Positions 41,811-63,383 of a DNA stretch of 64,000 nucleotides are shown here, piece after piece. Source of the stretch: Myxococcota bacterium (GTDB lineage: Bacteria > Myxococcota > Kuafuiibacteriia > Kuafuiibacteriales > Kuafuiibacteriaceae); the NCBI GenBank assembly GCA_039024635.1, contig JBCCQA010000001.1, positions 71,932 to 135,931 on the forward strand, written 5' to 3'. Position numbers and translations under genes: made by a program. Position 1 is the first letter of the stretch. Each line of letters opens with the position of its first letter. The notes beneath the pieces were generated by a model. It ran no database searches. It was given only the letters and a program-made list of their open reading frames with translations, and had not been told where the DNA came from.

Positions 41811-42121
41811 AGACGCTCGGCGCCCCACCGAGTGGCGTACTCGCCCATGAGTTCTCCGGCCATGGCCCCGCCGAAGGCGCCGACCAGCGTGCCCACACCG
41901 GGAATGAGGCTTCCGACCCCGGCCCCCAAGGCCGCGCCCCCGGCGCTGCCGGTCAGGCTGCCGACGTACTGTCCCAGCTTCTTCTTGTACTCTTCCGGGC
42001 TGACCTCGCCGGACCAATACTTACGGGTCTCTTGCCCGACTTGGATGCCAAAGCGGACCGCAAAGCCCACCACCACCGGGTGGCGAAGGCGACGGTCCCA
42101 ATCAGGAGGGAGGCCGTTCAT
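41687..42121 (-). CDS. Glycine-zipper membrane protein, paralog 1
   Basis: 144 aa. 'GSLTGSAGGAALGAGVGSLIPGVGTLVGAFGGAMAG' zipper. Clear homology to the adjacent ORF. 3' 124 nt antisense-overlap the DnaJ-like tail. Confidence 0.5.
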   Translation of the reverse strand: MNGLPPDWDRRLRHPVVVGFAVRFGIQVGQETRKYWSGEVSPEEYKKKLGQYVGSLTGSAGGAALGAGVGSLIPGVGTLVGAFGGAMAGELMGEYATRWGAERLQGKVGGSSEDVSDPAGGGLEVTEPGRTEPTGRAPDDEPGA

Positions 42122-42543
42122 AGCTTGCGACGAGGGCCGTCCGCGGGCTCCGAGTCCGGGGCTTCGCGGGCCAAAGAGGCTTCCGGCCTGCGCCTGCGCC
42201 CGAAGCGAACCTCCGCGTGCTCGACCGCAGCCCGGCCCAGTCTCGAGCCCGCTTCGTCGCCGACCAGAGAGCCGGTGAAGGCGCCCAGGATCGTTCCCAG
42301 ACCAGGGGCGAAGGCTGTTCCGGCCAGGGCGCCTGCCGCTGCGCCCGCCATGCCGCCCGAGATGGAGCCGACGTGGGTCCAGCCTCGGCGCTTGAATTCC
42401 GCGCCGTCGATCTCGCCGCTCCGGACCCGTTGGTAGTCCTTAGCGAAACGAAGGCTGAGCGTCGCTGCCGTCACCACGACCGTGGGGTGTCGCTCCAAGC
42501 GCCGTATGATGCGCTCGATGGGCGTGCGTTTCAGCAGTTCCAT
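42118..42543 (-). CDS. Glycine-zipper membrane protein, paralog 2
   Basis: 141 aa. 'GSISGGMAGAAAGALAGTAFAPGLGTILGAFTGSLVG'. Shared N-terminal motif RRLxRHPxVVV...RF...SGE..E.K with paralog 1. Confidence 0.5.
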   Translation of the reverse strand: MELLKRTPIERIIRRLERHPTVVVTAATLSLRFAKDYQRVRSGEIDGAEFKRRGWTHVGSISGGMAGAAAGALAGTAFAPGLGTILGAFTGSLVGDEAGSRLGRAAVEHAEVRFGRRRRPEASLAREAPDSEPADGPRRKL

Positions 42544-42686
42544 GGGCTCAGGCTACCGCTCCAGCGCGCGGGAGCGAAGCGTCAGGCATAACTTTCGACA
42601 TCCCCACGGGCCCATGCTAGCTCGCCGAGCGGCGTGGCCGCGCGCACGGGCAGAAAAGGGGCCCATGTACGCTCGACCGTGGTTCT

Positions 42687-44198
42687 ATGGGCCGAAGCAT
42701 GAAGCGACTGGGCGGTCTTCTCCTCCTGCTGTTGACTGGCTGCGCCGATACCCTCCTAGGGATTTCACCCCTCGAAGAAGGCGCCGACCGACTGACGTAC
42801 CCGTTTGGTCTCGCCGCCGTCGAGGGGCCTACCCCCGCCCAGGACACCCTGCTCGTAGTCAGTACGAATCTCGACCAGCGCTTCAACGCCGGCTTGCTGG
42901 CGGCTTTCGACTTCGAGGCCCTTGCTGCACAGGTCGAAGCGGCGACCTGCGAGGCGCCCATCGTCCGCTCCCGCATCGAAGGACTGCGGGGCGCGCTCCG
43001 CGTGCCCTCGGGCTCCGGGCGCTTGGTCCCCTTCCGCGACGGGGCACGCCTTCGCCTCGCCCTCCCGACCCGCTTCGGTCAGAGCCTCAGCCTCTTCGAC
43101 CTCGACCCTGGCGGCCGTCTGCCGACGCCCGGCACCCCGCCCGAGCCCGGGGACCTCGTCTCTTGCCGGGCACAGGGTGCGTCGACCGAGACCGCCCTTG
43201 ACTGTGCGGCCAGTCATCGCATCGGGCTCGACGACGATGACCCTTTCGACGTCGCGCCCGTCTACGACGAGGCCGGCGAACTGGAGCTCCTGGCCGTGAC
43301 CCATCTGGGGGGCAACGGCGGGCCGATTTCGGTCGTAGGGGCCGACCGCATTCGAGCCCGACTCGACCCCCAAGAGGCCACGGACCCCGAGGCCGCGGCC
43401 GGTCGTCCCATCGTCGCCAACGTCTCGGGACTGACCGGCTCCTTTGCGGCGACCGGGCTTGGGCCCGGGCAGTTGCTCGTCACCACCAACGGCGACCCCA
43501 CCGTCCGCCCGCTTCGGATCGCGCGGCTCGAATCGTCCACTTTGCTCGGCCTTCGGCGCTCCAGCTTTGCCGACGTCGGACAGCCTTTGGGGCAGGAAGG
43601 ACGGGACCCTTCGGTCGTTGTTCCCTCTGCCTTCGCGGACCTCGAGCCCGAGACCTCGGGAGAGCGGGTGCGGGGGCTTGCGACGAGGGCTGATCGGCCG
43701 GAGCTCGCGTGGGTGGCCCTGAGGATCATTGACGACCAGGGCGCGCAAACGGAGAACTCGGTGATCGCGACGGTCGACCTGACCGAGAGCCCGTTTCGCG
43801 TGCTGTCGGTCTTCGAGGTGGGCGAACAGATTGGTCGTCCCGTCTTCGATCCGGTCTCGGGCCTCCTGTACGTTCCTGACGAACGCCGCGGACTTTTCGT
43901 ACTCGACGTTTCGGGCGTCGCTCCCTTGCTCGTAGCCCAGGTCGACGGTCGCGCTCAAGTCGCCATCGGCGGCGGATTCACCCGAGGCTTCCGGCTTCTC
44001 TCCAGCCCGACCGAGGTGGCCTTCGATCCCAGACCACGCCAGGGACGCCGTCTTCTTTACGCCAGCAACTTTCTCAACAGCACTTTGGGCGTGATCGACG
44101 TGACCGAGCCCAGCCGCCCCTGCGTCGTCGCCCGGCTCGGTGAGCCTCTGGACCCGGGCAACGAGAGTCGGGAGCTGCTGTTCGGAGTCGAGCCTTGA
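42687..44198 (+). CDS. Lipoprotein with LVIVD-like beta-propeller repeats
   Basis: Lipobox LLLTGC. Repeats 'LLYVPDERRGLFVLDVSGVAPLL' and 'LLYASNFLNSTLGVIDVTEPSRPCVV'. 503 aa. Confidence 0.55.
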   Translation: MGRSMKRLGGLLLLLLTGCADTLLGISPLEEGADRLTYPFGLAAVEGPTPAQDTLLVVSTNLDQRFNAGLLAAFDFEALAAQVEAATCEAPIVRSRIEGLRGALRVPSGSGRLVPFRDGARLRLALPTRFGQSLSLFDLDPGGRLPTPGTPPEPGDLVSCRAQGASTETALDCAASHRIGLDDDDPFDVAPVYDEAGELELLAVTHLGGNGGPISVVGADRIRARLDPQEATDPEAAAGRPIVANVSGLTGSFAATGLGPGQLLVTTNGDPTVRPLRIARLESSTLLGLRRSSFADVGQPLGQEGRDPSVVVPSAFADLEPETSGERVRGLATRADRPELAWVALRIIDDQGAQTENSVIATVDLTESPFRVLSVFEVGEQIGRPVFDPVSGLLYVPDERRGLFVLDVSGVAPLLVAQVDGRAQVAIGGGFTRGFRLLSSPTEVAFDPRPRQGRRLLYASNFLNSTLGVIDVTEPSRPCVVARLGEPLDPGNESRELLFGVEP

Positions 44199-46858
44199 GA
44201 CGAGGCCTCTTGTTCTGGGGCCTGAGCTCCATCGTCCTCGCGAGCTGTGGGGAAGACGTCGACGATGAGGCGGCGGACCTCGAACGACCTTCGGGTCTGG
44301 TTGCTGTCCCGCGCAGCGACACCCGGACCGATCTGATCATCGCCGACTCCGAAGCCGACGGTCTTCGGGTGCTCCAGCTGGACGGCGGTGATGACGTTTC
44401 TCTTCGAAGCAACTTCGTGGGCGGTCCCGCAGTTTTCAAGCCCGTGCTCGTTCCGGCGCCGGGCTTTCCGACCGAGGCGGCGGCTCATGCCGGCACGGTG
44501 GCGACGGCGACGAGTGCCACCCGTCGGGCTTTCGCTCTCGCGCCGGGCAGCGACACCCTTCACGTAACCTGGATCCCGACCCAACCCTTCGCCGTCAGCT
44601 CGACCCGTCTCGAAGGTCACCGCCGAATTGGGAGCCTGGCCATCAACTCGCCGAGCGTCGGGACTTCGACCCTGGCCAGTCTGAGCCTGCTCGATCTCGA
44701 CCCCGGCCTGCGCGATTTCTTGCCCGTCGACCTCGTCGTGACCGACGAGCTCGGCGTCGAGGATGAGGCGTGCGGTGACAACACCGGCGTCCTGACCCGA
44801 GCCCTGCTCTTGCTCCAGGCCCGAAGCGATGCCGCCGCGCCCGGCGCACTGCTCGCTCTGGACCTCTTGACGGCGGAGCCCGGCGAGCTCTGTGCATTCG
44901 ACGGCAGCAGCTTTCCTATGCTGGTGCGGGCCAACTCAGGGGTCGTGGGGGCACGGCTCTTACGGGTCCCGGCGCCCGCCAACGCCCGTGAACTCGTCCT
45001 GGTTCCGGACGGCCTCGTGGTGGTCACGGTCGATGCATCCGAGGGTGGGGCCGGCCTCGCCTTTGTACCCGGCCTGAACAACACGCTCTCCGTCCTCACC
45101 TCCTCGGTGGCGACCGGCGGGCCGGCCAGCGGCGCCTTCGCGCTTCCGGCCGGAAGCTCAGGTCCTGCCGGCTTTGCTTGGCTGCGCTCGGATGAGCCCA
45201 TCATGGAGACCTTCCTCTGTTCGGAACCTTCGACGCCGCTTTGTGTATCTTCGACACTCGCCGTCAGCGGTCCTTACGACGTCCCCGAAGAGGGGCTTGT
45301 CTCCGGCCCCGGCCGACTGGTCTTGCGAGAGTCTGCGGTCGTCGCGGCCGCTTTCGGGTTCAGCCCCTTCCGACTCAGCGACGCGGTGGGTGGCTTGGCC
45401 GACGTGACCGCGACCGCGCTAGAGGAGGGCGTCAACGTCGGTGTTGCGGCTCTCGTGCATCGAGACGGTGTGGTCAGCATTCTCTCCGGCCCGCCCAGCC
45501 AGCTGTCCTACGTGACCCAACGAGAGCGGGACTTCGTCGACGAGGGCGAGGTCACGACCCGAGCCCAACGCCGCTTCGCCGAGATTTCGCCCCGGAACGA
45601 GCTGGGGGCGCGGACGGGTCCGCCCGGCTGCGCCAATGTGTCCACCGACGAAGACGTCACGCGCGAGCTCGACGCGGACCGCTGGTTCGTCGGTCAGGCG
45701 CCCTTCGCCTGCATCGACGATCCCGACAACGCTGACGAGGACGCCGCGGACTTCCAGAGCATTCGCTCGCCCACCGACTGCCCCGACGTGGTCATCGAGC
45801 CTCGTCCGCTTGATGGTGTTTTTCGAGCCAGCTTCCAGGGTGCACTGTTCGAAGGGACAGCCAACGACATACTCGAGACTGCACTCTTTTCGTTCAGCGA
45901 GTCCGAGATCGAAGTGTTCTATGAGTCCGTGCTCCCACCCGTCGACTTCGTGGAGCGGGAGATTCGGGTTGGAGATGCGGTGCACTTTTTTGCCACCTGC
46001 GAGGCCATCGATGGTCCTGACATCGAGGTCGCCATCGCGTCGCCGACATCCGTGGCCGAGGGCGCGGGGGTGGTTCAGCTCGTCGAGCCTCAGCGGCTTC
46101 GATTCGACTTCGCCAATTTCTTCAGCCTGGAGCGGGAGACTTCGCCCCGCCAGATGGCCTTCGACCCAAGCGTGGACGGACCCTTCGCCTTCGCGCGTCT
46201 CTGCGAGTCGGTGCGGGTCGACCGTATCGAGGTCTTTCCGCGAAGTGCAGAGGCGGTGCTCAGCCGTGAGACCGACGGCGGCGACATCATCGAGGTCGTC
46301 GATCGTGTACCGGTGGAGGGCAATCGGGCTCGATTCACCCGAGGCATCCGCTTCGAATGGGAGGCTCAGGATGGCTTCGCCTGTCTTCACCAGCAGGGCA
46401 CGGACCGTCGGGATCCCGAGACGGGCCAGATTCCCGATGCTCCGAACCAGCGGCCCTTGGTCACCTGCGGAGGCCAAGAGTGCGTCCCCGCCCGGACCGA
46501 AGTCCCCTGCGCCAACTCGATCGACTGTGGGCCAGGCCGCAATTGTGTCGGAGGCTCTGCTCGGGACTGTGCGGGGGTGTGCGTCCGGGACTGCACCTCT
46601 TTCGGCGCCTGCTTCGTCGGGTTGATCCAGCGGAGCTGCCCGGAAATCGAGCTCCAGGTAAACGGAGACGACCCCGTCCTCGTGGATCTGAACCCCGCCA
46701 ACGCCACGGCCGGCGGCATCCGATTCCCGGGCGCGGTCCCCGAAGAAGCCGTCCACGTGCCCAATCGGGACTCGGTCTTCGTGAGTTTTCCCGGTTCTCG
46801 AACCCTCCGGGAGCTCCGTTTCACCGAGGAAGGCATCTCCGTGGGCCTGCTCCGCTGA
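44195..46858 (+). CDS. Large lipoprotein with C-terminal Cys-rich module
   Basis: Lipobox VLASC. 887 aa. About 14 Cys within ~90 aa near the C-terminus (CGGQECVPARTEVPCANSIDCGPGRNCVGGSARDCAGVCVRDCTSFGACF). ATGA coupling to the upstream lipoprotein. Confidence 0.55.
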   Translation: MRRGLLFWGLSSIVLASCGEDVDDEAADLERPSGLVAVPRSDTRTDLIIADSEADGLRVLQLDGGDDVSLRSNFVGGPAVFKPVLVPAPGFPTEAAAHAGTVATATSATRRAFALAPGSDTLHVTWIPTQPFAVSSTRLEGHRRIGSLAINSPSVGTSTLASLSLLDLDPGLRDFLPVDLVVTDELGVEDEACGDNTGVLTRALLLLQARSDAAAPGALLALDLLTAEPGELCAFDGSSFPMLVRANSGVVGARLLRVPAPANARELVLVPDGLVVVTVDASEGGAGLAFVPGLNNTLSVLTSSVATGGPASGAFALPAGSSGPAGFAWLRSDEPIMETFLCSEPSTPLCVSSTLAVSGPYDVPEEGLVSGPGRLVLRESAVVAAAFGFSPFRLSDAVGGLADVTATALEEGVNVGVAALVHRDGVVSILSGPPSQLSYVTQRERDFVDEGEVTTRAQRRFAEISPRNELGARTGPPGCANVSTDEDVTRELDADRWFVGQAPFACIDDPDNADEDAADFQSIRSPTDCPDVVIEPRPLDGVFRASFQGALFEGTANDILETALFSFSESEIEVFYESVLPPVDFVEREIRVGDAVHFFATCEAIDGPDIEVAIASPTSVAEGAGVVQLVEPQRLRFDFANFFSLERETSPRQMAFDPSVDGPFAFARLCESVRVDRIEVFPRSAEAVLSRETDGGDIIEVVDRVPVEGNRARFTRGIRFEWEAQDGFACLHQQGTDRRDPETGQIPDAPNQRPLVTCGGQECVPARTEVPCANSIDCGPGRNCVGGSARDCAGVCVRDCTSFGACFVGLIQRSCPEIELQVNGDDPVLVDLNPANATAGGIRFPGAVPEEAVHVPNRDSVFVSFPGSRTLRELRFTEEGISVGLLR

Positions 46859-46931
46859 TCCGCAGGGTCGGCTGCGATTCTTGCAGTCGAGCCGCTGCTC
46901 TCATATGAACTCAGCGGCGGACCGAGCGGGC

Positions 46932-48914
46932 ATGCTTCATCTCACGATCAACGAAAAGGGCGGCGGGTCTCGCCGAGAGAGCTTCGAGAAGGAGGAGGTC
47001 ACGATCGGTCGCGTGCAGGGCAACGACGTGATCTTGCCTAAAGGGAACATCAGCAAGCGTCACTCCCGTCTCGTCTTCAAAGACAACAAGGTGGTCATCG
47101 TCGACCTCAAGTCGACCAATGGGACCTATGTCAACGGCAAGAAGATCACCGCCCCTCAGGTCGTGAAGTCCTCGGACAAGATCTACATCGGCGATTTCAC
47201 CCTTCAGATCGACACCAACGGCGACTCGGGCTCGCCTGCCCATCGGGAGGAGGAGATCGACCTCTTCGGCGGGGATGCGCCGGACGGACCAGGCCCCGGC
47301 CTGCTCGACGACGACTTCGAGCAGGAGTTCGGGAGCGGCTTCGGGTCTCCGGAGATCGAGCCAGGGGGACTGCCCGAGGCCCAGCTCGAGCCCCCGCTGG
47401 CTGCGCCGGCGCCCGAACCCGACCCGGAACCGGAGCCCGTTTCTTTGGCGCCGCCTGAGCCTGAGCCCCTGCCGCTTCCTCTCACGCCCGAACCCGAGCC
47501 GGACCCGCCGACAAAAGCGGCTCCGGAGCCCGAGCCCCGGCCAACGGCGGCGGAGTCTCCGCCCCCAGCGGACGGTGGGCGACCTCGGCGTCCGCCCTCA
47601 GTGGTTCGGCCGGTGCCGCGGCCGACCGGGGCCCCGGCACCCAGCTCCACCTCTTCCGAATCCCTCCCCCTCATTACGGGCCCCGCTACCCCTGCGGCCG
47701 ATGGGCCTACGCATCGTGAGGCCCGGGCTTTCCTCCTTCATGAACTCGTTCAGACCCTCGGTCTGAGGAGTTCGACGGCGGCGGAACGGGTCGAACGGCG
47801 GGCGGAGATCCGACAGGTGGCGGAGCGTTGCGCGGCCTGGGAAGCGGCTTCCGGTCGCGTGCCTCCAGGCCACGTCGATGCCTTGGTATCGGAGCTCACC
47901 CGCATGGCCACCGACTTCGAGCCTTTGTCCGCCTTCCTGGATGACCCCGAGTGTGTGGAACTCGTCGTGGGCTCGGACCTCGAGATCCAAGTCGACAAGG
48001 TCGGTCGACTCGAGAAGTCCGGCGTCCGCATCCCTCACCCTGGACGACTGGACGAGCTCATCCGACAGCTCTCTGCGCTGGGGGGCATGGACGAAGAACC
48101 CGAGGACTTCGTCGACCTGCGCCTTGGGGATGGGACCCGGGTCGTCGCTGCGCTCCCGCCCACGGCCTTTCGGGGGCCGCTCCTCTCCATTCGCAAGACG
48201 CAGCGCGAAGCCTTCAGTCTTGCTCACCTCGAGGAGTACGGGGGCCTGTCGGCATCCATGCGGGCCTTCTTGGATCAGCTTCTCCAGTCGAGGACCAATG
48301 TCCTCGTCGTGGCTGGGCCTGGCGTGTCGCCCAACGCGACCCTGAACGCCCTCGCCCTCGGCCTTCCCCCCGAGGATCGTCTCGGCACCCTGGAGCATGG
48401 AATCGAGCTCCACCTCGGCAGCGACCGATGGGCGGTAGCGCTCGAGCCGGGACACTCCATGGCCGACCTGGCCGAGCGCGCTCGTGCCTTCCAGTGCGAG
48501 CGCTTGGTGGTCGGGGACGCGCTGGCCGAGGCCGACGAGGTCCTCGACGCCGTTCGAGGCTCGCTCACTGGCTCTCTTCTCGGCATTTCGGCTCGGGACG
48601 CTGCGGAGGCGCTGGAGCGCCTTCTGCAAGCATCGACCATGGATCGCGACACCTTGGTCGAGGTTTGCCCCATTGTCTTGGTGGAGCGGAGATTCGCCGA
48701 CAACACCCGACGCATTACGCAGATTGCCGTGGCCGAGGTCGACGACGACGAGTTCGAGATTGAGGAGCTCTTTTGTTTCCGTTTCGAAGGCGTGGGCGCC
48801 GATGGCGTGACCAAGGGACGGTTTGAGTCGGCAGGAGAGGTCCCCAAGTCACTGGCCCGACGGGTCGAACGAGGTGACCTGCAGCTCGACCTTCAGCTCC
48901 TGCGGGGCTCGTGA
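46932..48914 (+). CDS. FHA domain fused to catalytically degenerate CpaF/TadA (VirB11-family) ATPase domain
   Basis: N-terminal FHA (VTIGRVQGNDVILPKGNISKRHSRLVFKDNKVVIVDLKSTNGTYVNG). Pro/Glu-rich linker. CpaF-like core has Walker A replaced by 'VVAGPGVSPNATLNAL', Walker B by 'RLVVGDALAEAD' and the His-box by 'LLGISARDA'. Start could be 46881 or 46905. Confidence 0.7.
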   Translation: MLHLTINEKGGGSRRESFEKEEVTIGRVQGNDVILPKGNISKRHSRLVFKDNKVVIVDLKSTNGTYVNGKKITAPQVVKSSDKIYIGDFTLQIDTNGDSGSPAHREEEIDLFGGDAPDGPGPGLLDDDFEQEFGSGFGSPEIEPGGLPEAQLEPPLAAPAPEPDPEPEPVSLAPPEPEPLPLPLTPEPEPDPPTKAAPEPEPRPTAAESPPPADGGRPRRPPSVVRPVPRPTGAPAPSSTSSESLPLITGPATPAADGPTHREARAFLLHELVQTLGLRSSTAAERVERRAEIRQVAERCAAWEAASGRVPPGHVDALVSELTRMATDFEPLSAFLDDPECVELVVGSDLEIQVDKVGRLEKSGVRIPHPGRLDELIRQLSALGGMDEEPEDFVDLRLGDGTRVVAALPPTAFRGPLLSIRKTQREAFSLAHLEEYGGLSASMRAFLDQLLQSRTNVLVVAGPGVSPNATLNALALGLPPEDRLGTLEHGIELHLGSDRWAVALEPGHSMADLAERARAFQCERLVVGDALAEADEVLDAVRGSLTGSLLGISARDAAEALERLLQASTMDRDTLVEVCPIVLVERRFADNTRRITQIAVAEVDDDEFEIEELFCFRFEGVGADGVTKGRFESAGEVPKSLARRVERGDLQLDLQLLRGS

Positions 48915-50395
48915 CCGACTCCGGCTGTTTCCTGGTCGTCGAAGCCCCCGACGAGGCCGACGAAAAACGCGTCCCTCTCGGTGAGAGCTCCGTCGTAATC
49001 GGTCGGGACGAGGGCGCGGACGTACCCATCGAAGATCCGAAGCTCAGTCGTCGTCACGCCGCTTTCCGGATGATCGACGGCCACCCTTACGTCGAGGATC
49101 TGGGCAGCATCAATGGGGTCAAGGTGCGGGGGCGGCGCATCGAAGAGCGTCGACGCCTGCGAGACGGCGAGCGCGTCCGGCTCGGAAATACGCGGGTTCG
49201 GGTCCAAGCCACCGACCTTCCCCCGCCCACGACCTCCTTAGGACCCCGGCTCTTGGGCCCCGATCTCGAGCTCTCCCTCGGGCGAGCGATTCGCGTGGGT
49301 CGCACGTCGGACTGCCAGCTGCGATCGGAGGATCCGACGGTTTCCCGTTTCCACGCCATGATCGAGCCCACCCCCCCCACCGTTCGGGACATGGACTCGG
49401 CCCACGGCGTCTTCGTGAACGATCGCCGGGTACGACGGGCGCGACTGAAAGACGGCGACGAGCTGCGCTTCGGCAAGCTGGGCTTCGAAGTAGAAATCCC
49501 GATGGACGTGGAGGGCCCACGCGAACTGGAGCCCTGGCGTTCTCCTTGGCCGCGGCGTGTGGGAGGCCTCATTTTGGGTCTGTTGCTGTTGGGCGGCTTG
49601 GGTTTGGGGCTGAGTCGAGGCCGTAATGCCTCCCTGGCCGATGGGTCAGGGCCGACCCCTTCGGCCGAGGTCGAAGCACCGTCCGCGGCGCCCGAAGAGC
49701 AGGCTTCCGAGCCTGTGCTCGCCATCCGCGAAACGCTGGAGCCCAGTTCACCGAAGGCGCCTGTCGCAGTTCCCCCGGTGCGTCGGCGAGTGCGAGCAGT
49801 AGCGCCAAAGCAAGAGAGCTTCTCCGCGCCGCCTTCGTGGAGGGCCGGCTTGAGGGCCTACTTCGCCGGCGAACCCAAGCTGGCCCGTGCCCGGGCTCGC
49901 GCCCCCGAGCTTGTCGCCTGGCTCGACGAAGCCGAAACGCGACACGCACGGGCCCTCACCGAGGTCAGCAACGACGTTGAGCGGGCGAAGCTGTTGCTGG
50001 GCGCCTTGGCTCGCACCGAAGCTCGGGTCTCGACGCAGGTCTCGCCCATGCGGCGTGATCTGAGGGTGCTCTTGGCCGCGGCTTTCGCTGAGGACGCGGA
50101 GCGTCTGCTCGAGCAGTCTCGGGAGGCGAGCGCCTACCAGCACCTCATGGAGGCCCGGGCCTTGGATGCCGAGCACCCTCGGGTTCGGGCGTTGGCCGCG
50201 CGCCTCGACAGCGCTGCCCGGACTCAGGCCAAAAAAGCCGAGTCTCTGTCCAGGGCTGGGGACCAGAGGGCTTGCGGGGCCTGGAGGAAAGTGGCCGCAA
50301 TGACCAGCCCGTCTAGTCGACTAGGGCGAGAGGCTCGTGGCGCCTTGGCTCGGGCCTGTGAAGAGCATGAAGTCAGCGGTCCGCCGAAGGGATGA
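48911..50395 (+). CDS. Membrane-anchored protein with two FHA domains and helical C-terminal domain
   Basis: FHA1 (SSVVIGRDEGADVPIED...RRHAAF...GSINGVKV). FHA2 (IRVGRTSDCQLRS...SRFHAMIE...AHGVFVN). TM 'VGGLILGLLLLGGLGLGL'. ATGA coupling with the upstream gene. Confidence 0.7.
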   Translation: MTDSGCFLVVEAPDEADEKRVPLGESSVVIGRDEGADVPIEDPKLSRRHAAFRMIDGHPYVEDLGSINGVKVRGRRIEERRRLRDGERVRLGNTRVRVQATDLPPPTTSLGPRLLGPDLELSLGRAIRVGRTSDCQLRSEDPTVSRFHAMIEPTPPTVRDMDSAHGVFVNDRRVRRARLKDGDELRFGKLGFEVEIPMDVEGPRELEPWRSPWPRRVGGLILGLLLLGGLGLGLSRGRNASLADGSGPTPSAEVEAPSAAPEEQASEPVLAIRETLEPSSPKAPVAVPPVRRRVRAVAPKQESFSAPPSWRAGLRAYFAGEPKLARARARAPELVAWLDEAETRHARALTEVSNDVERAKLLLGALARTEARVSTQVSPMRRDLRVLLAAAFAEDAERLLEQSREASAYQHLMEARALDAEHPRVRALAARLDSAARTQAKKAESLSRAGDQRACGAWRKVAAMTSPSSRLGREARGALARACEEHEVSGPPKG

Positions 50396-51020
50396 ATTCA
50401 CCCTTCCCGGACTCCACTTCTTCGAGCTTCGCCCGAAGGCGACCCATGAGGCCTTCCCATCCGCCGTTTCGTATCTGTTCTCGGAACTCGGACTTGTAGG
50501 TGCGGACGGTGCTCATGCCGTTCGTTTCGAGGTCCCACATCTTCCAAGCTTCCGGAGTGCGGACGAGGTGGAAGACCAGGCCGATACTTCGTCCTCTTGT
50601 ATGAACCAAGGCTTCGAGCTCCGCCTCGTCCTCCTCTACGCTTTCCTCCAACCACTCGATCCGCAGGTCGCCTTCCCTTTCCTCCTTCTTCTCCAGGGCC
50701 AGTCGCAGCTTGCTGCGGTAGGAGGCCTCGATTAGGCTGCGCAGGAGCTTGCCAAAGGCCTTCTTCTGAGGCTCGGACAGCTCCGACCACCGTCGACGCC
50801 CGAGAGAAGCAGAGACCATCCGGTCCCAGTCGATGGCTTGCTGAATGAGACCGTCGGCGTCGGCACGCCAGGCTTCACCAGCCTCGGTACCGGACTTGGC
50901 GGGACGGTTCGCGAGAGCTCGGGCCTCTTCGATGCGATCTTCGACCCAGTCCTTGGGAGCAGGAGCAGCAGCCAACAGCAGGCTCAAAGCGGCGACGCTC
51001 ACGGCCCCATCGTCGTTCAT
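50373..51020 (-). CDS. MlaC/Ttg2D-like periplasmic lipid-binding protein
   Basis: Signal peptide. 215 aa. Family resemblance (ASLGRRRWSELSEPQKKAFGKLLRSLIEASY...). Downstream of tolC on the same strand. Confidence 0.45.
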   Translation of the reverse strand: MNDDGAVSVAALSLLLAAAPAPKDWVEDRIEEARALANRPAKSGTEAGEAWRADADGLIQQAIDWDRMVSASLGRRRWSELSEPQKKAFGKLLRSLIEASYRSKLRLALEKKEEREGDLRIEWLEESVEEDEAELEALVHTRGRSIGLVFHLVRTPEAWKMWDLETNGMSTVRTYKSEFREQIRNGGWEGLMGRLRAKLEEVESGKGEFIPSADR

Positions 51021-51068
51021 CCCGGCGAGGAATCAAGGGAAGACCGGGATGTGCAGGCCCGCACGCCC

Positions 51069-52430
51069 TCAATCTCTTGCCCCGGCCTCTCGTGCCAGAC
51101 GCCCCGTCGCTCGAGCCAGGCTCGCCAGTTCGAGGATGGTGTCGTAGCGGACCGTCTGAATCTCGGCTTCTGACGCCGCCCAGGCCAAGAAGGCGTCGAT
51201 GAGCTCCGCCGCATCGCCCGTGCCGATGTCGTAGGCCAGAACGTTCGAGGTCAACCAACCCGACGCTGCGCGGTTGGCCCGCCCCAGCTGTTTGAGTCGC
51301 TCCAGGTTGCCCTCGAGACCGGCGTGAATGGCGCGAACCTCCAGCTCTGCCGCGCCCGTGGCCAGCTCCTCTTGGACCCGCCGAGTGCTGAGCTCCGCTT
51401 TGGCTTGCTCGAGTTCTGCCAGCTTCTGGACGACGTTCAGCTCCCACCGCAGGCCGACGCCGAGGCCGAAGTCCACGATGTTGTAGGGGTCGAAGATGAA
51501 GGGGTTGGTCTGGTCCGTAGCGTTGCTCTGGTAGGCGAAGTTGACGAGAGCGCCGAGCAGAAAGTCGGGCAGCAGACCCGCGGCGCGAAACTGCGCGAAG
51601 GCCTTCTGCGCGTCGACCACCGCACGTAGAGCGGCGAGGTCTGGTCGGCCAAGCCTTGCCTGCTCGATCACGAGCTCCAGGGGAGGGGCGGAGGCAGGGA
51701 TGGCTTCGTAGAGCGGTCGCCGGACGAAGCTCAGCTCTTCGGTTTGGGGAAGGCCGGTCAGAAGAAGGAGCGCCGCCGTGGCCTGCTTTCGGGCGGCTCG
51801 CGCCTCAGCCTCTCGAACGCTGAGGGTTCGAAGGACATACTCCAGTCGCAGTCGATCGTTCTCGGTCACTTGAGCCGACTCGTCGTCCAGCAGCTCCTCG
51901 ACCCGCTCCAGGATACCCTCCAAGGTGTTCTGACCGTCGGCAAGGGAACTCAAGAGCGACTCGACGAGCTGGATGGTCCAGAAGGCCCGCGCTACGTCGT
52001 ACACGACTTGGGCCCGCGTCACGTCACTCTGGTGCTCCGCCGCCTCGACGAGGCTCTCGGTCGCTCGTTTGGCCCGCCGAATTTTTCCGAAGGTCGAGAT
52101 GGGGACGAAGATCTGCGCCCCACCCCGGACGGCGAAGCCGAGTTCGCCGAAGTTCAAATCGCCCCCCAAAGACTGAGGGGTGATGGTCGAAATGTCGTTG
52201 CGAACCGCCGTCTTGGCCTCGGAAGTCGGTCCACCGATGAGCGTTTGCAGCTGGAAGGTCGGATAAGCCGCGGCGGCTGCTTGATCGAGCAAGGTCTCAG
52301 CTTCTGCGACCTGACTCACCGAGGCTTCGATATGGAGGTTCCGGTCCAGCGCCAGATCCACCAGCTGCGGCAGGTCGAGCTCGTCGGCACCCACGGCGAC
52401 AAAGCCCGCGAAGGCGACTACCAGACTCAC
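51069..52430 (-). CDS. TolC-family outer membrane efflux protein
   Basis: Tandem OEP repeats and a signal peptide (VSLVVAFAGFVAVGA). Start inferred at 52430, since the ORF track's 52484 sits only 14 nt from the divergent lnt. Confidence 0.7.
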   Translation of the reverse strand: MSLVVAFAGFVAVGADELDLPQLVDLALDRNLHIEASVSQVAEAETLLDQAAAAAYPTFQLQTLIGGPTSEAKTAVRNDISTITPQSLGGDLNFGELGFAVRGGAQIFVPISTFGKIRRAKRATESLVEAAEHQSDVTRAQVVYDVARAFWTIQLVESLLSSLADGQNTLEGILERVEELLDDESAQVTENDRLRLEYVLRTLSVREAEARAARKQATAALLLLTGLPQTEELSFVRRPLYEAIPASAPPLELVIEQARLGRPDLAALRAVVDAQKAFAQFRAAGLLPDFLLGALVNFAYQSNATDQTNPFIFDPYNIVDFGLGVGLRWELNVVQKLAELEQAKAELSTRRVQEELATGAAELEVRAIHAGLEGNLERLKQLGRANRAASGWLTSNVLAYDIGTGDAAELIDAFLAWAASEAEIQTVRYDTILELASLARATGRLAREAGARD

Positions 52431-52498
52431 GTTCGGCCGGCGGTAACAGACCCATCGTTGACAGGCAACTGGCGGCCCCGCCACATGACGGCGCTCCC

Positions 52499-58226: not shown

Positions 58227-60128
58227 TCAGTTTCCCCGAACCTCGAGTCTGTCGCGCTCGAAGTCTGCGATGACCTTCAGTTTGGCCCCAGCGGGAACGT
58301 CGACGTCTTTGACGACGACCGGCGTCGCCCGGCGGAGGGAACCCGGCCGCTCGATGGGGGGGCAGCTCGTGCCTTCGATGGAAATCCGATGGCGGCCGGG
58401 TCGAAGGCGATGGTCGTAGCTCGGCGTACTTCGAGCAATGACGACACCGTCGACCGTCACTCGGCTCGAGCAGGAGCGGGTCCCAAAGGCGACGGTCGCT
58501 TCCTTGGGGGGGGTGGGCGGCGCCTCCCTGGACGTCGGCGCCTTGGCCGAAGTGGGCAAGGCGCCAACCTCGGCGGCGACGGAGACCGTCTCGGTGCTCG
58601 CCGACTCGTCGGGGGGCGCGGTCGGCGTCGAGGAGGGCGCGGTCTCGTCTTCCGCTGGTTCGGGTGCCTGAACCTCTGCCGTAGCCGTGGTAGGGAGGGT
58701 TTCGGTGTCGGGACCATCGCTGAAGCCGATGGCGGCCAGGACCACCACGGTGGCCGCCACGGCGCCGACGACGAGGGGCAGAAAAGGTCGACGGGTCGGA
58801 GGGGCCTCCCCCGGGGTCGACGTGTAGCTCATGGGCGCGACGGGCGCTTCGACGCCGGCCCACGGGCTCATGGTCGAGGAAGGGGGGGGCGTCGGGACCC
58901 TGCTCGGCGCCGATGCGGTCTCGTCTCTGGTGATCCGAGTGTGAACGGGTGGCTGGCTCGTTCCGAGGGCTGGGGTCTCCTCGACGGACGAGTCGCTCTT
59001 AACGAGCAGGGGCGTCGAACCTGGGGTCGCGTCGGGTGAGCTGGGAAAGCGGGTGGCGATGGTCTCGATGTCGTCGGTGATGGAGTGTTCGATCGCCTTG
59101 GAGATGACGTCGCTCAGTTCGAGGGTGCTCGGAACCGAAATCGGCGGAAGCTCGGTTTGGGTCTCTTCTTGGCGTCGTAGCTCCAGCAGCTCCGTGGCGA
59201 GCTTGCCCAGCTTTCGATGGTCTTCGTCGGGATGAAACAAGAAGCGAAGTCGGGCGAGCTGTTGGGCGAGATCGGCCGCCGTCTCCACTCTCCTCTCGGG
59301 ACTCTTGGAGAGAAGCCTGAGGACGAGCTCACTGATCTCGGGCGCCACGCTCGGGTTGCGCTCGGAAGGATCTGGGACGTTGTGCGCTCGCATCAGGGAG
59401 CGGGTCGTCTCGTCGTCGGGCCGCCAGAACAGGGCCTCGCCGGTGAGCATTTCGAAGAGGAGGAGGCCGGTCTGGTAGATGTCGGTCCTGGGGTCCACGT
59501 CCAGGCCGACGGCCTGCTCGGGGGACATGTAGCCCGTGGTCCCCTTCACGACCCCCGCTCGCGTCTTGGGCATGGCGGCAGCGGCAGAGGCGGTCTTGGC
59601 GATGCCGAAGTCCAGGATCTTGACCTCGCCCTCCCGGGAAATCAGGACGTTGCGGGGATTGAGGTCGCGGTGGACCAGACCCAAGGGCTCGCCGTCCGGC
59701 CCGTGTTTCCGGTGGGCGTAGTCCAGACCCTTGGAGACTTCCTCGGCCACCAAGAGGGCGAGACCCGGGTTGAGCGTTCGCCCGAATTTTCGGGCATGAT
59801 CCAGGAGTTGAAAGACGTCCAGGCCATCCACGAACTCCATGGCGATGAAGTAGGTGCCGTCGACGCGGCCGAGCTCGTAGATGCCCACCACGTTGGCGTG
59901 ATTGAGACTGACCGCGATCTTGGCCTCGGCCACGAAGCTCTGAACGAACTCGGGGTCCCGTGCGTACTGAGGCAGGATCTGCTTGATCACCAGATCCTTC
60001 TCGAAGCCGTCGGCGCCGTAGAGCTTGGCCGCGAAGACCTCGGCCATCCCGCCCACCGCAATGCGGCGCGTGAGGAAGTATTTGCCGAAGGTGGTGGGTT
60101 GGAACACGAGGCCCCCAGGCGAAGCCAC
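58227..60128 (-). CDS. Ser/Thr protein kinase with Pro-rich linker, TM segment and C-terminal PEGA domain
   Basis: 'IAVGGMAEVF...VIKQI...HRDLNPRNVLI...DFGIAK...GTTGYMSPE'. C-terminal PEGA-like beta domain (RVTVDGVVIARSTP...). Confidence 0.9.
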   Translation of the reverse strand: MASPGGLVFQPTTFGKYFLTRRIAVGGMAEVFAAKLYGADGFEKDLVIKQILPQYARDPEFVQSFVAEAKIAVSLNHANVVGIYELGRVDGTYFIAMEFVDGLDVFQLLDHARKFGRTLNPGLALLVAEEVSKGLDYAHRKHGPDGEPLGLVHRDLNPRNVLISREGEVKILDFGIAKTASAAAAMPKTRAGVVKGTTGYMSPEQAVGLDVDPRTDIYQTGLLLFEMLTGEALFWRPDDETTRSLMRAHNVPDPSERNPSVAPEISELVLRLLSKSPERRVETAADLAQQLARLRFLFHPDEDHRKLGKLATELLELRRQEETQTELPPISVPSTLELSDVISKAIEHSITDDIETIATRFPSSPDATPGSTPLLVKSDSSVEETPALGTSQPPVHTRITRDETASAPSRVPTPPPSSTMSPWAGVEAPVAPMSYTSTPGEAPPTRRPFLPLVVGAVAATVVVLAAIGFSDGPDTETLPTTATAEVQAPEPAEDETAPSSTPTAPPDESASTETVSVAAEVGALPTSAKAPTSREAPPTPPKEATVAFGTRSCSSRVTVDGVVIARSTPSYDHRLRPGRHRISIEGTSCPPIERPGSLRRATPVVVKDVDVPAGAKLKVIADFERDRLEVRGN

Positions 60129-62042: not shown

Positions 62043-63383
62043 TTACTCCGGAGCTTCGTAGAGCTCGTGCTTTCGCAGCAGGTTTCGGAGGTGCTTCCGA
62101 TCCATCGAGGCGAGACGAGAAGCCTTCGACAAGCTTCCGTCGGCTCGGGCCAGCAACCAAGGAAGATAGCTCCGCTCGAAGTCTTGTTCCCAGGCACTCT
62201 TGTGTTCGGAGAAGGAGCGCTCCTCGTCGAAGGCCTCACCCTCCAGTTCGCTCCCTCCTTCCTCCACCACCCCGTGAATCATGAAGCGGGCAACGCCGTC
62301 CCCGGTCTGGGCCAGCCATAGGCCACGTTCCACCGTGTTCTTGAGTTCGCGAACGTTGCCCGGCCAATCGTGGGCCCGAAGGGCCGCAACCTCTTCCGAA
62401 GGAATGGTCGCCTGATGGCGGGTCCGCTCGGCAAAGGCCCGAGCGAAAGACTGGGCCAGAACGGGAATGTCGTCTCGTCGCTGTCGAAGCGGGGGGAGGG
62501 TCAAGGGCACGACGGCGAGTCGAAACCACAGGTCTTCGCGGAAGCGACCCCGGCGAACCTCTTCCCGCAGGTCTCGCTTGGTGGCGGCCACGATCCGAAC
62601 GTCGACCCGCTGGCTCTCGTTGCCGCCCACCCGCTGGATCACTCGCTCTTCTAGGGCTCGGAGGAGCTTGGGTTGGACGTCGACCGGTAGCTCTCCGACC
62701 TCGTCCAGGAACAGCGTTCCTCCATGGGCCCGCTCGAAGGCGCCGGCGCTGCGCTCTTCCGCCCCGGTGAAAGCGCCTCTCTCATGACCGAAGAGCTCGC
62801 TTTCGACCAAGGTCGGCGCGATGGCCCCGCAGTCCACCGTCACGATGGGCCCTTCGGAACGGGCCGAGGCCTGGTGGATGGCTCGGGCGAGGACGTCCTT
62901 TCCCGTACCGGTCTCGCCCAAGAGCAGGACCGTCGCTTCAGTCGAGGCGATGGCCTCCAAGACCCCGAAGATCTCCCGCATGACCAGCGACTTGCCCCGA
63001 GCCTGACCGAATCGGTCATGGTTGGAAGGGAGGATCTTGACCGCGTCCTTGGACTCCATGACCTGGAGTTCGGTCCCGCCCAAGTCGAGGACGGTCCCGG
63101 GCCCAAGGACGGCCTCCTTGATCACGCTGCCGTTGACCTTGGTTTGGCCCTGGGACCGGTCGATGGCGTGGAGGCCGTCGCTTTCCTGGACCAGCTCGAC
63201 CTGAAGTGGGGCCAGGCCCTCCCAGCGGATGAGGACCTTCGGATCGGATCCGATGGTCGTCCGAAACTGGTGGAGCTGCAGCTCATGGCCCTTCTTGGGG
63301 CCGTTCAGCACCACGAGCTTGGGTCGGTCCAGGCGGATCTGATCCGAGACGAAGGCGGTCTTGGGCCCTGAGCTCCTATTCAC
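62043..63383 (-). CDS. Sigma-54-dependent transcriptional activator with N-terminal FHA domain
   Basis: FHA ([20 protein letters not shown]...). AAA+ sigma54 domain ([18 protein letters not shown]...GAFTGA...). C-terminal Fis HTH. GTG start. Confidence 0.9.

Follow-up and report, generated by a model that had tools for sequence, protein, structure and literature searches.

The 64-kb stretch of Myxococcota DNA analysed here, referred to below as the window, encodes at 46932..48914 of its forward strand a 660-residue protein in which an FHA domain is joined through a disordered linker to a fold of the CpaF/TadA type. Its closest characterized counterpart is KilF (MXAN_3107), the CpaF-type ATPase with an N-terminal FHA domain that serves as the motor of the Myxococcus xanthus Kil Tad-like prey-killing system (PMC8460266; PMC12075869). 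Catalytic residues of the ATPase fold are replaced in the window protein, which appears to be a non-catalytic KilF/CpaF paralogue, belongs to a conserved clade, and is the product of the third of four co-directional genes. All features described lie on the forward strand unless stated otherwise.

The open reading frame (ORF) starts with an ATG at 46932 and ends with a stop codon at 48912-48914. The longest possible ORF would begin with a TTG at 46881; the ATG at 46932 is favoured because all 48 aligned homologues begin at the equivalent of M1 (MLHLTINEKGG). At 65% GC, gene calling by the G+C content of third codon positions (GC3) discriminates poorly, and a score of GC3 minus the content of second positions (GC2) was used instead.

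The FHA domain comprises residues 1-97 (46932..47222), with a Pfam FHA match at residues 23-87 (E 3.5e-17). Aligned to the FHA domains of GarA and OdhI (PF00498), its phospho-Thr-binding residues R27, S41, H44 and N63, in the Gly-Arg, Ser-x-x-His and Asn-Gly motifs, are intact. An acidic Pro/Glu linker of about 155 residues follows (residues 98-255; 47223..47696), with 44 Pro, 20 Glu and a net charge of -22, and within it lie two short motifs, EEEIDLFGGD (core EEIDLFGG; 47247-47276) and PGLLDDDFEQEF (47295-47330). The remainder consists of a three-helix bundle (3HB; residues 256-330) and an N-terminal domain (NTD; residues 331-425), together at 47697..48206 and retaining D395, R397 and R403, and of a degenerate C-terminal ATPase domain (CAD; residues 426-660; 48207..48911) that includes the P-loop AGPGVSPNA at 48312-48338. 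In an AlphaFold model built on a 48-sequence alignment, the predicted local distance difference test (pLDDT) score exceeds 90 at residues 1-97 and about 256-660 and falls below 50 at 98-250, consistent with a disordered linker between two folded parts.

The CpaF/TadA-type fold is far beyond chance. Pfam T2SSE (PF00437) matches residues 389-572 with 32.5 bits, weakly yet above its gathering cut-off of 24.9. The C-terminal 384 residues align end to end with residues 113-476 of Caulobacter crescentus CpaF (9e24) in phmmer (E 1.8e-23 to 3.2e-23); the alignments to FlaI, archaeal GspE and VirB11 are weaker. Searched against the PDB with Foldseek, the model returns TadA/CpaF (8rjf_A) first, at E 6.4e-27 over 422 columns, followed by FlaI, archaeal GspE and VirB11. 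The original prediction, made from the sequence without database searches, had described an FHA domain, an acidic Pro/Glu linker and about 380 C-terminal residues running along the whole CpaF fold. Pfam, phmmer and AlphaFold/Foldseek bear this out, and every string that it quoted is present in the translation of 46932-48914. It had also regarded the architecture as uncharacterized, which does not hold: FHA followed by an intrinsically disordered region (IDR) and CpaF has been published as 'class III' CpaF (PMC12019362), and KilF is of this kind (PMC8460266). Only the dead version, together with its operon, appears to be undescribed. In a full-text search of open-access papers we found no description of a catalytically dead FHA-CpaF protein or of a pseudo-ATPase among pilus and secretion motors (PilT/VirB11).

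Catalytic positions lost and kept

Motif positions were mapped through the CpaF alignment and a 120-sequence MAFFT alignment, in which 66 members of the clade to which the window protein belongs were compared with 36 active FHA-CpaF relatives. Residue roles and numbering are those of the cryo-electron microscopy study of CpaF (PMC12019362). The Walker A lysine, K287, corresponds to P467 and is Ala, Pro, Gly or Ser throughout the clade (66/66), and the Mg-associated Walker A threonine, T288, is replaced here by N468 at a position that is Thr or Ser in 62 of the 66 members. The Walker B glutamate, E357, corresponds to D529; this position varies across the clade, being Asp in 16 members, Gly in 10, His in 10, Glu in 8, Leu in 6 and other residues in the rest. 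R347, the inter-chain (trans) Arg finger that touches the gamma-phosphate in CpaF (PMC12019362), is A519 here and remains Arg in only 4/66. Of the two His-box residues, H374 has become L545 (Leu in 62/66) and H382 has become S553, at a variable position. The motif GxxGxGK[ST] was not found anywhere in the clade members.

Other parts of the pocket are retained. The N-domain Arg fingers R217 and R223 (R397 and R403 here) are present in 66/66, as are the Asp-box residues E308 and E312 (E488 and E492), with D309 alone lost from that box (H489). The Walker A glycines G282 and G284 (G462 and G464) are kept in 65/66 and 66/66, respectively, and D215, which stabilises R347 in CpaF, is kept as D395 (Asp in 64/66). 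In the active FHA-CpaF relatives the lost and the kept positions alike are canonical (36/36). Between the Asp box and Walker B, the pore loop has 33 residues, six fewer than the 39 of those relatives.

The window protein thus resembles C. crescentus CpaF/TadA (PDB 8rjf, 8rkd, 9e24) along the whole 3HB-NTD-CAD chain, in the N-domain Arg fingers and in the Asp-box glutamates, and differs from it in that K287, T288 (in this protein), R347, E357, H374 and H382 are replaced and no Tad genes lie nearby. Its score against the NCBIfam TadA-family model TIGR03819 is 79.5 bits against a cut-off of 373, and it does not score as an equivalog. Since the catalytic residues are replaced and the single substitution K287A abolishes the ATPase activity of CpaF (PMC12019362), 'catalytically dead' is a reasonable reading of the 660-residue protein. 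The phmmer alignment to CpaF, the MAFFT alignment and hidden Markov model (HMM) alignments agree on the motif loss that had been proposed, with the catalytic Lys, Glu, His and trans Arg all gone. However, the claim that every catalytic signature is degenerate was too strong, given the retention of D395, R397, R403, G462, G464, E488 and E492.

A conserved clade among Myxococcota FHA-CpaF proteins

A homologue search over 5.8 billion proteins gave 681 matches. In none of the top 66 clusters (90% identity), which share 37-75% identity with the query, is the Walker A lysine present. All come from Myxococcota or 'Deltaproteobacteria' metagenome-assembled genomes, and the members found belong to uncultured genomes. 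These clusters have a replacement P-loop in common, GPGV[STGN][PA][TS]ATLNAL (in short, GPGVxx[TS]AT). Below them in the ranking stand FHA-CpaF proteins with an intact GGTGSGKT. An exhaustive profile search of 1.84 billion 50%-identity cluster representatives located the replacement P-loop in 23 representatives. The second linker motif (core PGLIDDNFDQEF) occurs in 59 of 67 clade members and in none of 131 active FHA-CpaF proteins, and both short linker motifs appear, on these alignments, to be specific to the dead clade.

In a rough neighbour-joining tree the clade is monophyletic and forms one branch inside a large radiation of Myxococcota FHA-CpaF paralogues. In many other branches of the same tree, too, the Walker A lysine is missing; the branch with KilF is short, and its motifs are fully canonical. 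Among the 150 best-scoring 50%-identity representatives, this lysine is absent from 107. The wider FHA-CpaF-like radiation shows further degenerate P-loops, such as GSGRST, GAGTGT and GSGVTT (L010-L076, P0229-P0354), and many of its paralogues are followed by a tandem-FHA gene of their own. Degenerate paralogues of this kind occur in cultured strains as well, including Polyangium sp. y55x31 (L013) and Sorangium sp. So ce176 (L076). Four proteins of 1156-1605 residues (P0125, P0226, P0227 and P0232) contain a canonical GGTGSGKT CpaF-like unit and several profile-matching stretches, and may represent fusions or tandem arrangements.

Selection on the gene was estimated against the L088 orthologue, which is 76% identical over the aligned codons; the synonymous rate (dS) is about 1.2, and the ratios of nonsynonymous to synonymous rates (dN/dS) are approximate. 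The ratio is 0.149 for the whole gene, 0.064 for the FHA domain, 0.114 for the N-domain and 0.146 for the ATPase domain. The FHA domain is therefore the most constrained part of the protein. Within the clade, identity is 83-85% in the FHA domain and 37-38% in the ATPase-fold part; to active KilF-type proteins it is 55-70% and only 30-32%, respectively. Because dN/dS is 0.15 against a 76%-identical orthologue and the replacement P-loop is itself conserved, we conclude that the gene is maintained by purifying selection and is not decaying. 'Pseudo-ATPase', the term used in the original prediction, is a fair description of a protein that has lost its catalytic residues and whose gene is kept by selection.

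The four-gene cassette and Kil cluster 1

The original prediction had missed a conserved four-gene operon around the gene. The first gene, lipoA (42687..44198), encodes a predicted lipoprotein of 503 residues with a hydrophobic N-terminus, a signal peptide and the lipobox LLTGC, and had no Pfam or NCBIfam match. The second, lipoB (44195..46858), encodes a predicted lipoprotein of 887 residues with the lipobox LASC and a Cys-rich C-terminal part. The homologue search with lipoB returned only four proteins because lipoB evolves fast, and an AlphaFold model built on a four-sequence alignment has a mean pLDDT of 39. The gene for the dead ATPase is followed by one at 48911..50395 for a KilD-like protein of 494 residues, which has two N-terminal FHA domains (Pfam FHA x2, E 4.6e-35), one predicted transmembrane helix at about residues 216-238 and a helical C-terminal part. 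Two of the gene junctions, lipoA-lipoB (4 nt) and dead ATPase-KilD-like, have a stop codon that overlaps the next start; the third does not. A scan of 42000-51200 gave no promoter-like site, and the terminator-like matches in the same interval stayed within the range of shuffled controls.

Contigs were scanned for 80 of 570 loci, no two from one assembly. Lipoprotein A, lipoprotein B, the dead ATPase and the tandem-FHA membrane protein occur in the same order in 9/9 cassette loci: the window (same genome as L001), L002, L003, L004, L008, L012, L088, L089 and L090. That no cpa/tad pilus genes lie nearby had already been proposed, and indeed no secretin, A24 peptidase, GspF-type platform protein or Flp pilin was found among the ORFs scanned in the window; there are likewise no Tad components within 8-10 kb on either side in the eight other cassette loci. 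None of the four cassette proteins has a PADLOC match, and a reading of the cassette as an anti-phage defence system was rejected.

Several neighbours recur at these loci. A pyruvate phosphate dikinase gene stands directly upstream of lipoA on the same strand in 7/9 loci (L002, L003, L004, L008, L012, L089 and L090); its stop codon overlaps the lipoA start in four of the loci, and in L090 it is truncated to PPDK_N and PEP-utilizers. Downstream, a convergent pair encoding MlaC and a TolC-like OEP protein is found in 6/9 loci, at 50373-52484 on the reverse strand in the window.

The gene types of the cassette recall those of Kil cluster 1, which comprises MXAN_3102, MXAN_3103, MXAN_3104 (FHA), the prepilin peptidase KilA, the secretin KilC, KilF and KilD (FHA plus tetratricopeptide repeats) (PMC8460266). 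MXAN_3102 and MXAN_3103 carry beta-propeller-type InterPro domains, and two outer-membrane lipoproteins are predicted in the cluster (PMC8460266). We found the cluster-1 gene order reproduced around active relatives in L005, L009, L018, L035, L054 and L059. A lipoA profile built from six cassette members only matches the first lipoprotein of Kil loci (E 2.9e-25 in L009, 3.7e-21 in L054 and 7.9e-11 in L018), and lipoA is the counterpart of the MXAN_3102 position in Kil cluster-1 loci. The KilD-like protein matches the protein downstream of active KilF in L005 (BLASTP 5e-24), and the match of lipoB to the second Kil lipoprotein is weak and confined to 87 N-terminal columns (hhalign probability 93.6%, E 2.2e-7). 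Because of the lipoA profile, the KilD-like match and the weak lipoB match, the cassette is taken as shown to be a paralogue of Kil cluster 1, from which the small FHA protein, the prepilin peptidase KilA and the secretin KilC are missing.

The likeness to KilF thus extends from the protein itself (N-terminal FHA domain, disordered linker, CpaF fold) to its neighbours, with a KilD-type gene next to it and two lipoprotein genes further upstream. The KilF-type proteins examined keep GGTGSGKT, the Walker B glutamate, both histidines and R347 (36/36), whereas the dead clade lacks the lysine in 66/66. In addition, the dead clade has no gene for KilA, KilC or the small FHA protein in its operon, a shorter pore loop and linker motifs of its own. 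Its chromosomal context also differs; the Kil-type locus L005 is flanked by polA and a glycyl-tRNA synthetase gene.

An active FHA-CpaF locus of another kind, L006 7566-14143, contains an Flp pilin, an A24 peptidase, a secretin, the ATPase and a tandem-FHA protein, and the 9 kb or so before it hold no homologue of lipoA. Some lineages thus distribute the components of Kil cluster 1 differently.

Possible roles of the protein and its surroundings

We think it probable that the 660-residue protein is a non-catalytic KilF paralogue that acts as a phospho-Thr-reading scaffold or regulator and not as a motor. Such a protein would be a cytoplasmic scaffold or adaptor, possibly one that still forms rings. 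Through its FHA domain and the two linker motifs it would bind partners, phosphorylated or not, at the tandem-FHA membrane protein, and this protein would in turn form the link through the inner membrane to both lipoproteins. The whole module may detect a signal from the envelope or from cell contact, or pass one on, possibly to an active Tad/Kil machine whose genes lie elsewhere in the genome. In M. xanthus, KilD gathers at sites of prey contact even when the Tad machine is not functional (PMC8460266), which agrees with a sensing sub-module built from these gene types. The cluster-1 FHA proteins have themselves been proposed to form an upstream signalling layer (PMC8460266). A comparable principle is offered by the Pseudomonas type VI secretion system with its Fha1/TagH and PpkA-PppA threonine-phosphorylation pathway, as cited in that study, where an FHA protein is a phospho-dependent assembly scaffold of a contact-responsive envelope machine. 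That machine is unrelated and its FHA protein lacks an ATPase fold, and the present cassette has no conserved kinase or phosphatase.

Several points weigh against a scaffold of this kind. The inactivity of the ATPase domain is deduced solely from its sequence, and the pocket appears to be still constrained: the positions of R217, R223, D215, E308, E312, G282 and G284 vary little or not at all, that of T288 is mostly Thr/Ser, and a nucleotide or other phosphorylated ligand may still bind. Across the loci compared, no Ser/Thr kinase is conserved beside the cassette within 10 kb. The kinase at 58227-60128, which had been suggested as the phosphorylating partner, is not a general one: three loci, namely the window, its close relative L088, and L008, have a Ser/Thr kinase less than 10 kb away, and L002, L003, L004 and L012 have none. 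In secretion systems, FHA-like domains such as those of YscD/PrgH can function in the absence of phospho-Thr. Furthermore, the proposed homology of lipoB to its Kil counterpart rests on 87 columns.

The constrained pocket leads to the alternative that survives best, namely a nucleotide-binding, non-hydrolysing switch in which occupancy by ATP, ADP or another phosphorylated ligand controls assembly or partner binding, as in the FlaH-FlaI pair. FlaH, a RecA-type protein of the archaellum, binds ATP without hydrolysing it and regulates the FlaI motor. The likeness is one of concept only, that of a non-hydrolysing partner on a type IV filament motor; the fold of FlaH is of the KaiC/RecA kind, FlaH is no degenerate copy of the motor itself, and no homology is claimed. 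A switch would account well for the invariance of R397, R403, E488, E492, G462 and G464, with D395 nearly so, for the Thr or Ser kept at the T288 position in most of the clade, for a replacement P-loop that is conserved and not random, and for a dN/dS of 0.146 in the ATPase domain. It is harder to reconcile with the absence of Lys or Arg from the K287 position in 66/66, with the Pro and Val inside the P-loop, and with the Asn that the window protein itself has in place of T288, and we regard a switch as possible but doubtful.

A poison or regulatory subunit, one that would enter mixed hexamers with active KilF and so throttle extension or retraction of the Kil/Tad pilus, seems unlikely. The shared 3HB-NTD-CAD fold and an FHA domain that is 55-70% identical to those of active KilF-type proteins would allow mixing, and a mixed ring would slow, as the dead subunit has no trans Arg finger R347 to offer for its neighbour's ATP. 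However, the ATPase-fold part shares only 30-32% identity with active relatives, and the KilD-like partner and lipoproteins of its own suggest a separate complex.

It is very improbable that the protein is still an active ATPase that uses non-canonical residues, or that an alignment artefact masks an intact site. Although E488 and E492 are retained and D529 occupies the Walker B glutamate position, the phmmer, 120-sequence MAFFT and HMM alignments place the same degenerate residues, Foldseek aligns the whole CpaF chain, no GxxGxGK[ST] exists in the clade, K287A alone kills CpaF activity and the Walker B position is variable. Scarcely credible is a functionless gene left to decay after the loss of a Kil/Tad system, to which the lost catalytic motifs and the absence of secretin and peptidase from the operon might point, since this pseudogene reading is contradicted by dN/dS (0.15; FHA 0.064) and by conservation, with the frame intact in 66 clusters that are 37-75% identical, the replacement P-loop conserved, clade-own linker motifs gained, and cassette and synteny kept in 9/9 loci.

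The phospho-Thr-reading scaffold can also be placed in a broader setting, which we put forward tentatively. In Myxococcota, the KilF motor may have given rise to a large family of FHA-wired scaffolds that work without ATP, in which this clade would be the cytoplasmic hub of an unrecognised envelope-spanning contact or envelope sensor, made up of two lipoproteins and a KilD-like protein, that licenses or positions the prey-killing Tad machine or another envelope process. Such a family is suggested by the absence of the Walker A lysine from 107 of the 150 best-scoring representatives and by the many loci, among those examined, in which the protein is paired with a KilD-like tandem-FHA gene of its own. 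How prey contact is sensed and how Kil pilus assembly is triggered in Myxococcus is an open question, for which the cluster-1 FHA proteins and lipoproteins are the suspected sensor (PMC8460266). The cassette amounts to a natural dissection of Kil cluster 1, in which the lipoproteins, the KilD-type protein and the FHA-ATPase are kept and the pilus-specific parts and catalysis are dropped. Its study could reveal the roles of those components apart from pilus polymerisation. More generally, the clade offers a clear case, within a wider radiation, of a type IV filament motor turned pseudoenzyme.

Beyond the cassette, the window contains at 1-26900 a near-complete flagellar gene cluster. Flagella are unusual in Myxococcota, a phylum known for gliding and pilus motility. 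The cluster encodes FliP, FliQ, FliR, FlhB, FlhA, an FlhF-like GTPase, a sigma-28-like factor, a CheY-like receiver and a CheZ-like protein, and further FlgF, FlgG, FlgA, FlgH, FlgI, FlgJ, FlgN, FlgK, FlgL, FliW, flagellin, FliD and FliS. A link between the cassette and this cluster was rejected, as no flagellar genes are present at the other cassette loci examined. At the other end of the window, the reverse strand encodes the Ser/Thr kinase at 58227-60128 and, near it at 62043-63383, a sigma-54 activator (Sigma54_activat, AAA_lid_14) with an N-terminal FHA-like (Yop-YscD_cpl) domain.

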